From: Octopus sinensis
Lineage: Eukaryota
Reading direction: 5' to 3'
Assembly (NCBI RefSeq): GCF_006345805.1
Contig: NC_043023.1
Location: 17,236,001 to 17,300,000 of the forward strand
Length of the DNA: 64,000 nucleotides
The notes beneath the pieces were generated by a model that was not told the DNA's origin, ran no database searches, and saw only the letters and a list, made by a program, of their open reading frames with translations. Positions 18,720-46,917 of this stretch are shown in pieces. Each line of letters starts with the position of its first letter. The stretch's first letter is position 1. Position numbers and translations under genes: made by a program.

Positions 18720-19050
18720 ATGGAGACAACAATTCAGTACCATTCGATTCCTCTTCTGCTACCAGCTTTGACACTTTTGCTTTTCGTGACTCTTGTAACT
18801 GCCGGAGAACCAACGAATAGAGAAGGTCACTTCAAAAAAACCACAACATCAAAATGCTTAATTGATGAGAATAAAACTACAAAAACCGCGTCATCTCGTT
18901 TAGAATGTGCGAGTCTGTGTCTTTCACGCGATGAGTGTCAATATTTTAGCTATTGTAATGGCCCGTGTTATATGCATCGATCGCTTTACAACGAAGAAAT
19001 TAAAGATCAGGATTGCACATGTTTATCGTATGTTTTACTCTCCGGAAACA
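18720..19050 (+). CDS. secreted PAN/apple-like protein, paralog 1, coding exon 1 (signal peptide + PAN-like domain)
   Basis: ttttcag|GA ATG...; hydrophobic leader LLLPALTLLLFVTLVTA; SRLECASLCLSRDECQYFSYCNGPC; donor A|gtatgt (phase 1). Model: join(18720..19050,20965..21056,24483..24625,25163..25266,26189..26238) = 720 nt, 239 aa. Confidence 0.85.
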
Positions 19051-19219
19051 GTATGTAAATCACAATTTTCTGGCAAATTGTTTCTAATTTCTGTATATTT
19101 TAATCATTATACCAATTGTTCTACAAACGCACGTACACACACACACACACACACACACACACACACACACATTTATGTATGTATGTATGTATCTATGCGC
19201 AGATTTGTATGTGTTATGT

Positions 19220-19575
19220 ATGTATGCTCGCAAAGAAACGAACAAGGGACAACAATCAATGCACACTAACAAACTGTCCCATCCATGACATAGATTTATG
19301 CCAACAGGTAAATGTTGTGTATAGAATACAATGTTACAAATGCAACAAGTTCTATGTCGGTAGCACAAGAATACCGTTACACGTCCGCATCAAAGAACAT
19401 CTGAACACGATAGCCTCCTCCTTCAGAAAAGTTGCCGAAACACCGAAAAAAGCATAACAGTCACAATTGAGCCAGTGAAAGAAATGTGGGTAATTTAAGA
19501 ATTAAGGAAGCTATATTCATACGTAGACTCATACACGAGACATTGACGACCTCACGCATTTAGTGCTCTCATAGT
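19220..19575 (+). mobile_element. Penelope GIY-YIG fragment (intronic)
   Basis: NVVYRIQCYKCNKFYVGSTRIPLHVRIKEH; paralog at ~40460-40810. Confidence 0.75.
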
Positions 19576-19579
19576 CAGT

Positions 19580-20430
19580 ATATTTAAGAAAGGAGATAGA
19601 AAATCTTATGGAAACCATCGTGTAATCTCGCTACTTATTATTTTACGAAAGACCTTTGCTCAAATACCCTTGAACGGTCTCCACGTCATCGCAGAAAGAA
19701 TCCTTCCAGAATACCAGTGTGTTTTCCGAGCATTACTTGGAACCATAGTCTTGATCTGCGCCAGACAATTCCAAACAAATATCGAGAACAACAAAACCGT
19801 ATTTTCCTTATCATTTATGATCTGCAAAAGAATTTTGATAGAATACGAAGACCAGCTATATGGACGGTCCTTGATCAATTACTTCTTCTCTCTGATCATA
19901 CAATGGTATGACTGGGCGTTTCCTTCATCGTGATGGACTCTCAGAAGAATTCCCAATTACATCTGAATTGAAACATGTTTGCGTACCCGCTACTATGCTT
20001 TTCTCCTTATACCTTGCTGCAATGATCTATGAACTTCCCTCGGAAAAGCTGGGAAAGGATATCAGATATCGTTTTCATGAAAGACTCTTCAGCTTGGTGA
20101 GGTTTCGGTCAAAGAATCTTTCCAGTTCCAAGCGAATCTCAGAACTTCACTTCGTCGATGGCAACGTGATCACTCGGTCACTCAAGCTTAGAACCGCAAA
20201 AGGCTGTCATTGCGTATCAACGTTTTGAGCTCACTGTAAATTCTAAGAAATCTCAGTTCTTCGCCTAATCAATCCCGAATTCTGCCCTTCTGGACTTTAA
20301 CATCATAATTTCGGGCACACAACTGGAACGAGTTAATCACTTTGCATGCCTTAGAAGTGTGCTTTCCACCAAACACAATCCTGAGCGAGATGTGGAACGA
20401 GGAATCGGACCGGTTCACTCAGCTTTCTTT
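19580..20430 (+). mobile_element. degenerate RTE reverse-transcriptase relic (intronic)
   Basis: ILPESQCVFR, DLQKNFD, GLKQ..VPATMLFS and DIRYRF remnants; paralog at ~40815-41690. Confidence 0.65.
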
Positions 20431-20964
20431 GAAATAAATAAATGTCTTTCCTGAAAAATCATGGAAACTTCTGGAATGCACCTACTTTTTCTGTAAAATC
20501 TTATTGGTGTCACAAAAAGTTTACACAGATATGATCGTCATCAGTTGAGGCTGGAGCGAATGCTAAATTAAATGCGCCTAAGCGTAAGCGGCCCTTATCA
20601 ATGGGAGAAATCCAGTCGTAAATAGATGATTTAAACAGCGATGAAGAAGTGTTTTTCTGATTTTCTTTCATCATCAAATGTAGCAGATGATGTTGAAAAT
20701 GATGTTTTATATAATACAGAAAAAAATAATGCTTCAACTAGTTCTGGATGGAAAAAGTGCAGCGATTCTTCTCCATTTGTTTAAGACCAACAATTATTTT
20801 AGTTTTTGTGCTTAATTTAATGAAAATAAATATAAAAATTAGCTTTATGAAAAAGAGATTTTTTCGATTATTGTCCGTTTGTCACACACATTCATGCAAC
20901 CCTTTTCCGCCGTTTAAGGGTTTACATCTTGTTTGTATACTTACATTTTTTATTGCTGATTCAG

Positions 20965-45132: not shown

Positions 45133-45272
45133 GTGGAATTTCGGTTGAAAAAACCATCAGATGATGACGTATTCATTTTCCGTGGAACAGGGACGAATTC
45201 TACATCATGGTTCCAGAAAGATAAAATAATTGTACAGCAATGGCATACAGTAATGGTGACATTCAATGCGAA
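45133..45272 (+). CDS. paralog 2, coding exon 3
   Basis: ttgcag|GTG...GCGAA|gtatat; in-frame 3-nt indel relative to paralog 1. Confidence 0.78.
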
Positions 45273-45795
45273 GTATATATCATCTCCTTACTCATAATTA
45301 ACATCTTAAATTATTTAATAATTTTTCTTTTGAACACTTTCAGCAAAGATTACCGATATACTTTATATCTCATTGTTGTATAATATTATAATTCCATAAT
45401 GATAATCCTTTCTCCCGTACGCAGAACGTCTGACAGTTTGTTGGGGCGGTGGGGTGGGGGGTTAGTCGGTACCAGTGTCAAACTGGTAATCATTCCAACG
45501 ACCCCCGAAAGGGTGATAGGCACAGTCGACCTCGGTGGAATTTGAACTCAGGATGTATAGACGGACAAAATACTGCTAAGCATTTTATCCGGCATGCTAA
45601 ACATTCTGTCAACTCGCCGCCGCATACTAATGATTATGATAATGTTTTCGTTATGAACCTTAAGGTTTGACAAAAAGATCGATGAGGGTACAATTGATTT
45701 TGTGTGGGATTACATTTAAAAAAAACATGTAAACATAGAAAATAACAAAAATATAAAAAAAAAACAATTTATCAATTGTAATATATTAGTTTCAG

Positions 45796-45899
45796 TTACC
45801 CGGAGTTTAACATTGGGAATAACGGCGAGAGGATAGAAGCCAAAAGAAAAAGTGGAAATAAGGAAGAGTACGATATTTCTTACAAAACGCCGACCGGTT
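45796..45899 (+). CDS. paralog 2, coding exon 4
   Basis: tttcag|T...GGTT|gtaagt; (N)YPEFNIGNNGERIEAKRKSGNKEEYDISYKTPTG. Confidence 0.75.
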
Positions 45900-46870
45900 G
45901 TAAGTAAAACATCGCCTCTTGATTTCAGTGTAATTGATTGTATAACTCTGTGTTGGCGTACGCGAATGCATGCGTGCATGTGTGCTTGTGTGTGTGTGCA
46001 TGTGTGTGTGCATGCGCGCGCAGCTGTGGTTTTCAAGAAGCATTGTCTCATACATATAAATCTTTTAAATAGTTTTTCTTTAAAGCCAAATGAATGCAAG
46101 TTGTAACAAAATATTAATAATACAAGTCAGTGGTTTATACTCTTCTCTAGCATTTCAGTATTTCGGAGCAAGGAATCGTTCTTCGGGAAATTTACGGACA
46201 AACGGTGCTGATAACTGTTTTCCCTGCTCTCTGGCGTGTGATTATGAAGGGTTGGTTTGTGTTGCTATACACTGAACCTCAAAAGAAACGCGACATGTGT
46301 GTGACTGTGAAATATGTTTTAATTTCTTTATGTCTGAGATAAATTTTGATAAATCTGATAAACCTATCAATGGATTCAGTGATAGGTTGAATATTTTTTC
46401 AGTGTCTAAAAAGCATTACGGCGAGAAAAGACAAAGACAGTACGTGGATTGCTAGAAATCGGATCTGACACATCACCAACTCGCCTTACTCCTGCCTTTC
46501 CGTTTTCGGAAAACAGGTGCACAGTTATTTGCGGAATGGTCAAATTAATTTCAATGACACAAAAACCTGAAATATTAACAATTATATTTAGTGTTTTCAG
46601 CGGTCAACTTAGAAACAAACTTTACTTTTTATAAGGATATATGTGTATGTATGTATGCATGTGTGCATGCATGCATGTATGTATGCATGCATGTATGTAT
46701 GTGTGAATGTATATATTTATATATATATATATATATATATATATATATATATATATATATATATATATATATATGGGGGGGGGGGTTGTTTGTGTGTGTG
46801 TGATGATCATCCTGAAATTTAGAGTTAATTTCATTAATTTCTAACAATTTTTTCATTATTTTTTTTCCAG

Positions 46871-46917
46871 ATGTATATATTTACGAAGCCATGGTCATCT
46901 CAGTGATTTGGAAGTAG
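46871..46917 (+). CDS. paralog 2, terminal coding exon
   Basis: ttccag|AT...; (Y)VYIYEAMVISVIWK-TAG; in-frame 3-nt indel relative to paralog 1. Confidence 0.72.

Follow-up and report, generated by a model that had tools for sequence, protein, structure and literature searches.

A tandem Octopus family of predicted secreted PAN-domain proteins with diversifying C-terminal segments

Tandem families of secreted proteins under diversifying selection are common in invertebrates, and diversified recognition families are known in bivalves and snails. The PAN/apple domain has a conserved C-x3-C-x5-C cysteine core as its pattern, and the fibrinogen-related domain carries a disulfide-bonded, calcium-binding P subdomain that is preceded by an immunoglobulin superfamily (IgSF) region in FREPs and by collagen in ficolins. 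Here, two gene copies lying in a 64,000-nucleotide stretch of the Octopus sinensis genome (NCBI RefSeq assembly GCF_006345805.1, contig NC_043023.1, positions 17,236,001 to 17,300,000 of the forward strand; the window from here on) are compared with these systems. Each copy encodes a predicted signal peptide, a PAN/apple-like module and a C-terminal domain, and belongs to a family whose C-terminal domain is under diversifying selection in four segments.

In organization, the family resembles the bivalve C1qDC proteins, the amphioxus VCBPs and the sea-urchin SpTransformer genes, with which it shares clustering in tandem, ongoing duplication and positive selection confined to limited sites over a conserved fold (PMC6835236), as well as germline diversity with mosaic recombination (PMC13428168). 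However, the domains of these proteins are unrelated to those of the octopus family, and the binding or expression evidence is theirs, the octopus family being known here from sequence. According to PMC6835236, C1qDC proteins number under a dozen in cephalopods, which are reported not to share the C1qDC expansion. In contrast to other PAN/apple proteins (Pfam PF00024; the HGF N-domain, plasminogen, prekallikrein, factor XI, Toxoplasma MIC4 and Sarcocystis SML-2), the octopus protein has a single module that scores below the Pfam cut-off and is nearly constant and mosaic, and its variation sits in the other domain. That other domain differs from ficolins, tachylectin 5A, intelectin, ANGPTL3 and mollusc FREPs in having no Pfam or PDB sequence match to them, in being free of disulfides and about 80 residues shorter, and in following a PAN module and not an IgSF or collagen region.

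Diversifying selection in exons 3 to 5

A preliminary description of the locus, made from the letters alone, had proposed two five-exon copies, and splicing of these models (Table 1) recovered its architecture. All four introns are GT-AG with phases 1,0,2,1 in each copy, the joined frames are open (239 amino acids (aa) in copy 1 and 237 in copy 2), and the copies differ by one 3-nt indel in exon 3 and another in exon 5. The five coding exons stand as listed, but a further 13-nt coding exon (MNLK), the first exon of RefSeq models, lies 5' of copy 1, and exon 4 has a second acceptor, with two AGs 6 nt apart. Choice of the upstream AG adds two residues, and several RefSeq paralog models use it, since they read NFSYP. 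The exon 2 acceptor tract of copy 2 has a 20-nt deletion common to other open paralogs. The same exon set was found again in 27 gene models built from DNA of this genome. In contigs from four public runs, presumed to be RNA and carrying no tissue labels, position 19050 is joined to 20965 exactly at GT..AG in three of the four (three studies), intron 3 is skipped in two of the four (joint 24578-25197, the letters between being divergent), and in one contig of run X2 the letters at the junction of exons 4 and 5 are in the predicted phase. Because the exon-1 contigs differ by 3-4% from copy 1, this splicing is assigned to relatives and not to these exact copies; relatives of the copies are spliced as modelled. 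The exact exon 1-2 joins and the recurring exon set make the gene structure more than a chance pattern.

The two proteins differ at 29 amino acids (31.5 replacement differences, Nd, and 9.5 silent ones, Sd), close to the earlier hand count of about 29 and about 9. Exons 2, 4 and 5 together hold 7+6+4 = 17 replacements and 1.5 silent changes, again as counted, and the first 34 residues and all eight Cys are identical, which bears out the reported invariance of signal peptide and cysteines. Taken alone, the pair is nevertheless indistinguishable from neutral, with a ratio of replacement to silent rates (dN/dS, or omega) of 0.85 (one-sided Fisher p 0.78) and of 1.22 for exons 2-5 (p 0.37). The proposal of a lineage-expanded extracellular family under diversifying selection thus holds for the family and not for the pair by itself. 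The family was tested on 11 paralogs, that is, the 14 of 27 models with all five exons minus two near-identical duplicates and one frameshifted copy; the other 13 models, which lack exon 5 or more within the DNA examined, were left out of the selection set.

Codon models (M0, M1a and M2a, in our own GY94/F3x4 implementation) gave an M0 omega of 2.5 for exons 3-5 and a likelihood-ratio test (LRT) statistic of 132.4 for M2a vs M1a, with an omega2 of 9.1 on 38% of codons. The same comparison yielded 40.9 for exon 3 by itself, 94.3 for exons 4+5 and 11.6 for exon 1, and positive selection in exon 2 was not significant among these paralogs (LRT 4.6, p 0.1). The fast exons are therefore 4 and 5, as predicted, but exon 3 in place of exon 2. 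For exons 3-5 the statistic was 65.8 when gapped columns and three neighbours were dropped, 92.4 when two lesioned copies were dropped, 108.7 when double-nucleotide changes were permitted, and 42.7 with all three changes combined; exon 4 alone gave 88.2. The signal was kept in all five of these robustness runs. Model-free distances over whole exons 3-5 were 0.20-0.23 for dN (mean 0.228) and 0.12-0.14 for dS (mean 0.142), against 0.068-0.079 for introns 3-4, and dN exceeded dS in 55 of 55 pairs, although the pairs are not independent. Since replacement divergence is about three times the intron rate, the relaxed constraint first offered as an alternative is rejected for exons 3-5, both by this comparison and by the codon models. 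Exon 3 dS (0.16-0.20) likewise lies above the intron distance.

Columns with a posterior above 0.9 (naive empirical Bayes) number 32 of 101 and all fall within residues 148-154, 174-184, 192-204 and 218-228, variable segments (HV1 to HV4) in which indels occur. Placed on the structure model of paralog P0014 (predicted local distance difference test score, pLDDT, 92), the segments lie at or next to strand-connecting turns and between invariant motifs. Exon-length variants among the 11 paralogs are all multiples of 3, and the framework motifs are invariant. Diversifying selection thus acts on four segments of the C-terminal domain, encoded by exons 3-5.

Protein modules and their recombination

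The sole hydrophobic segment is N-terminal, with no further one elsewhere, and the proteins are predicted to be secreted without a membrane anchor. The proposed PAN/apple-like domain is borne out by structure comparison, which confirmed the PAN fold (a beta sheet with one helix) for the N-terminal module, although its Pfam PF00024 scores of 17.3 and 15.6 bits for the two copies, and of 18.6 bits for P0004, the relative with the best E-value among 11, are below the gathering score of 21.4 bits. Cys 63, 67 and 73 fit the C-x3-C-x5-C core, are unchanged in the pair together with five more Cys, and were aligned to the MIC4 apple domain.

No cysteine occurs beyond residue 101, and the C-terminal domain of about 130 aa is predicted by modelling to be compact, cysteine-free and beta. 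Ficolins, tachylectin 5A and intelectin are among its best fold matches, which are weak, and TLDc domains score equally; neither Fibrinogen_C nor COLFI was found by Pfam among the 11 members of set A2 or the 22 of set A4, and PDB profile searches returned no fibrinogen-like chain. Profile and motif comparison identify it as a shortened version of a domain that is widespread in metazoans, unnamed and missing from Pfam. The full form spans about 190 aa and occurs in Branchiostoma XP_078667427.1, in Octopus proteins that join it to a PAN module (e.g., XP_036360871.1) and in ESM Atlas clusters named 'Skeletal organic matrix protein 5' and 'Fibrinogen C-terminal domain-containing' (TM 0.74-0.76). 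Profiles match the octopus family at E 4e-27 to 2e-12 (P0030, P0035), with an hhalign probability of 95.7%, and the motifs W..VF, S...W..LPI.KV and F.G.G....WF are common to both. In the octopus family, about 30-40 residues after WQKVF are deleted, as is the entire C-terminal part that bears cysteines; its GC..D.GW...C.W segment, present in most of 20 longer relatives, is absent in P0014 and P0004.

The PAN exon is a mosaic, with variant blocks combined differently among 14 close exon-1 copies (pairwise homoplasy index (PHI)-like test, p 0.0005), and across 17 genes the trees of exon 1 and of exons 3+4 reject each other (approximately unbiased (AU) test, p 3e-4 and 2e-43). Three genes carry the PAN exon of copy 1 at 93-97% identity but exons 3+4 at only 63-68% (97% and 63% in one of the paralogs), and one further gene matches copy 1 at 68% in exon 1 and 82% in exons 3+4. 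The recombination signal within exons 4+5 is marginal (p 0.036). From the exon 1 mosaic and the mutually conflicting module trees, the family is read as a homogenised module and a variable module that have been recombined.

A candidate repertoire of binders and its alternatives

The explanation we favour, and hold with modest confidence to be probable, is that both genes are intact and belong to a tandem family, expanded in Octopus, that combines variable C-terminal segments with a homogenised and reshuffled PAN module and constitutes a germline repertoire of binders, whose targets are most likely microbes or parasites. Of the four variable segments, at least three (HV2-HV4) would share one end of an up-and-down beta meander and form one binding surface, the invariant NYP and R.SGN.E turns lying at the opposite end. 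The variable end of the secreted protein would grip a fast-changing foreign surface, presumably of a pathogen or parasite acting as the selective agent, and the constant PAN module may supply a shared function such as self-association or the binding of a glycan or host partner. PAN variants could be paired with different variable domains through gene conversion and unequal crossing-over in introns 1-2, and these processes together with duplication would renew the repertoire while some copies die. A defensive role is preferred to the others because C1qDC, FREP, VCBP and SpTransformer proteins show repertoire-style paralog diversity and mosaicism (PMC6835236, PMC13428168). The family is absent from the literature searched, in which coverage of subscription journals was limited. 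It offers a concrete and testable candidate: its copies run to dozens, omega is near 9 in four defined variable segments, and the C-terminal domain, small and free of cysteines, should express readily. The analysis also corrects a chimeric RefSeq model and points to an unnamed metazoan domain.

A bolder form of this idea is doubtful. It takes the family as an antibody-like germline repertoire of Octopus, built on a new scaffold, a fibrinogen-type domain that has lost its disulfides and its sugar-binding subdomain, with four loops resembling complementarity-determining regions at one end and a constant PAN effector module. Recombination, possibly with splicing across tandem paralogs (hinted at by the database models P0001 and P0004/P0104, described below), would then pair the PAN module with different variable domains, and the family would be the cephalopod counterpart of FREPs, C1qDC proteins and VCBPs.

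Still less probable is a gland secretion directed at prey, that is, an accessory protein of saliva or venom that diversifies in response to varied targets in prey, since no result ties the family to a gland and Pfam and PDB sequence searches found no similarity to a named toxin. Soluble carriers or sensors in the mucus of skin or suckers, which would capture diverse environmental chemicals or shape the microbiota and would not be pathogen receptors, are rather unlikely; the fold matches in their favour are weaker than those to fibrinogen and TLDc domains and span only part of the model, and an omega near 9 would suggest antagonistic coevolution. We give marginally less weight again to a reproductive role, in sperm-egg, spermatophore or egg-coat recognition under sexual selection or conflict. 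Strong positive selection and a burst of copies (a 12-member clade of O. sinensis only) would agree with it, but the O. bimaculoides annotation may simply be without such copies, and diversity among many paralogs of one genome, with module shuffling, would be expected of a repertoire more than of a species-specific lock and key. Finally, the pair dN/dS, several broken copies, near-identical duplicated contigs, indels within the variable segments and the raised exon 3 dS might suggest decaying genes with an artefactual signal from relaxed constraint, gene conversion, misalignment or assembly duplicates, but this is very improbable, because relaxation is unable to drive replacements to about three times the intron rate, the signal persists without gapped columns and in single exons, and the framework motifs, multiple-of-3 length variants and spliced relatives count against decay.

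Locus, family and neighbouring elements

The family is tandem, as the preliminary description had it for the pair, but copy 1 and copy 2 are only putatively adjacent, since they sit on different contigs flanking a 100-N gap. The contig that starts at this gap (189 kb, C27:17271578-17460423, gap-free) ends in a second version of its first 39 kb, 99.4% identical, so that copy 2 is present twice; in the twin, 150 kb downstream, the upstream neighbour is a different paralog. Either 150 kb were duplicated in tandem very recently, or the contig was misassembled through a haplotype switch. Introns of copy 1 and copy 2 diverge by 4-9%, like those of other paralogs, whereas near-identical duplicates within the cluster are 98.7-99.8% alike, and copy 2 therefore does not look like such a duplicate of copy 1; the suspicion of an uncollapsed haplotype fails for the pair and survives for the start of copy 2's contig. 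The small upstream exon before the twin (L082, C27:17418140-17418237) has AAG instead of ATG, and that gene would thus begin at the Met in exon 1.

The suggested genome search for more paralogs found 68 of the 98 candidates scored to match exon 1 (19 of them at 84-100% identity) and 29 of 60 to match exon 3. The region C27:16.97-17.475 Mb, mapped in full, holds 14 exon-1 copies (in 17.00-17.43 Mb) and 6 gaps, and more clusters lie on contigs C8 and C4. Lesions are carried by 5 of the 27 gene models, some copies being broken. In the C-domain tree the two copies are sister sequences (100/98) within the 12-member clade of O. sinensis rows (support 90/87), and the 25 named proteins of the short form that were looked up, a subset of the matches, all come from Octopus.

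The sole database protein from this locus, O. sinensis LOC118768100 (P0001; XP_036369805.1), is a chimeric model that joins copy 1 exon 1 to copy 2 exons 2-3 and a different last exon. Related uncharacterised models are O. sinensis LOC118768097-101 and O. bimaculoides LOC106867736 (XP_014768183.1, UniRef 'Apple domain-containing protein'); many other RefSeq models of the family are truncated, and none has a described function. Isoforms X2/X1 of LOC106867736 (P0004/P0104) share one C-terminal domain and have different PAN exons, and these isoforms and P0001 are either annotation chimeras or products of alternative splicing across paralogs. O. sinensis LOC118764386 (P0016) is modelled with two tandem C-terminal domains behind a single PAN domain, and the models P0014 and P0012 lack the PAN exon.

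Table 1. Positions in the window of the exons of both copies and of associated features.
Feature	Position	Strand	Remarks
Copy 1 upstream coding exon	3270..3282	+	MNLK + phase-1 base; pattern, GT donor, start of RefSeq model P0001, joined frame open
Copy 1 exon 1	18718..19050	+	Predicted signal peptide and PAN/apple domain, 8 Cys; Met at 18720
Copy 1 exon 2	20965..21056	+	Start of C-terminal domain (WQKVF ... PIEK), mostly conserved; exon 1-2 splice in run contigs
Copy 1 exon 3	24483..24625	+	HV1 (about 24501-24521) and HV2 (about 24579-24611)
Copy 1 exon 4	25157..25266	+	Acceptor 25157 or 25163; HV3 (about 25182-25196), first half of HV4 (25248-25266)
Copy 1 exon 5	26189..26238	+	Second part of HV4 (to about 26202); last strand (conserved); stop
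Assembly gap, 100 N	35478..35577		Separates copy 1 from copy 2
Copy 2 exon 1	39785..40117	+	Met at 39787
Copy 2 exon 2	42207..42298	+	
Copy 2 exon 3	45133..45272	+	
Copy 2 exon 4	45790..45899	+	Acceptor 45790 or 45796
Copy 2 exon 5	46871..46917	+	Includes stop
Second small-upstream-exon region	57013..57094	+	Begins a further repeat unit

Several other elements lie in the window. The 15-kb intron between the MNLK exon and copy 1 exon 1 contains a near-complete retroelement of the long interspersed nuclear element type (12566-15723, +), with two overlapping frames encoding an endonuclease and then a reverse transcriptase by Pfam. A GIY-YIG fragment and a decayed reverse-transcriptase-like stretch lie at 19104-19457 and in the corresponding part of intron 1 of copy 2; being common to both introns 1, this insert therefore entered before the duplication. 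Directly 5' of copy 2 exon 1 is an N-terminal fragment of ribosomal protein L23a (39219-39659, +; Pfam PF03939, E 1e-20), probably a processed copy, and copy 1 has other sequence at the matching position. A 319-aa open mariner-type transposase frame (52207-53166, +) shows Mos1 helix-turn-helix and DDE matches. The window also contains a 116-bp tandem array of 15 copies (33299-35063), nested 107/331-bp repeats (6289-7115) and two near-perfect palindromes of 282 bp (38026-38308) and about 460 bp (31264-31724).
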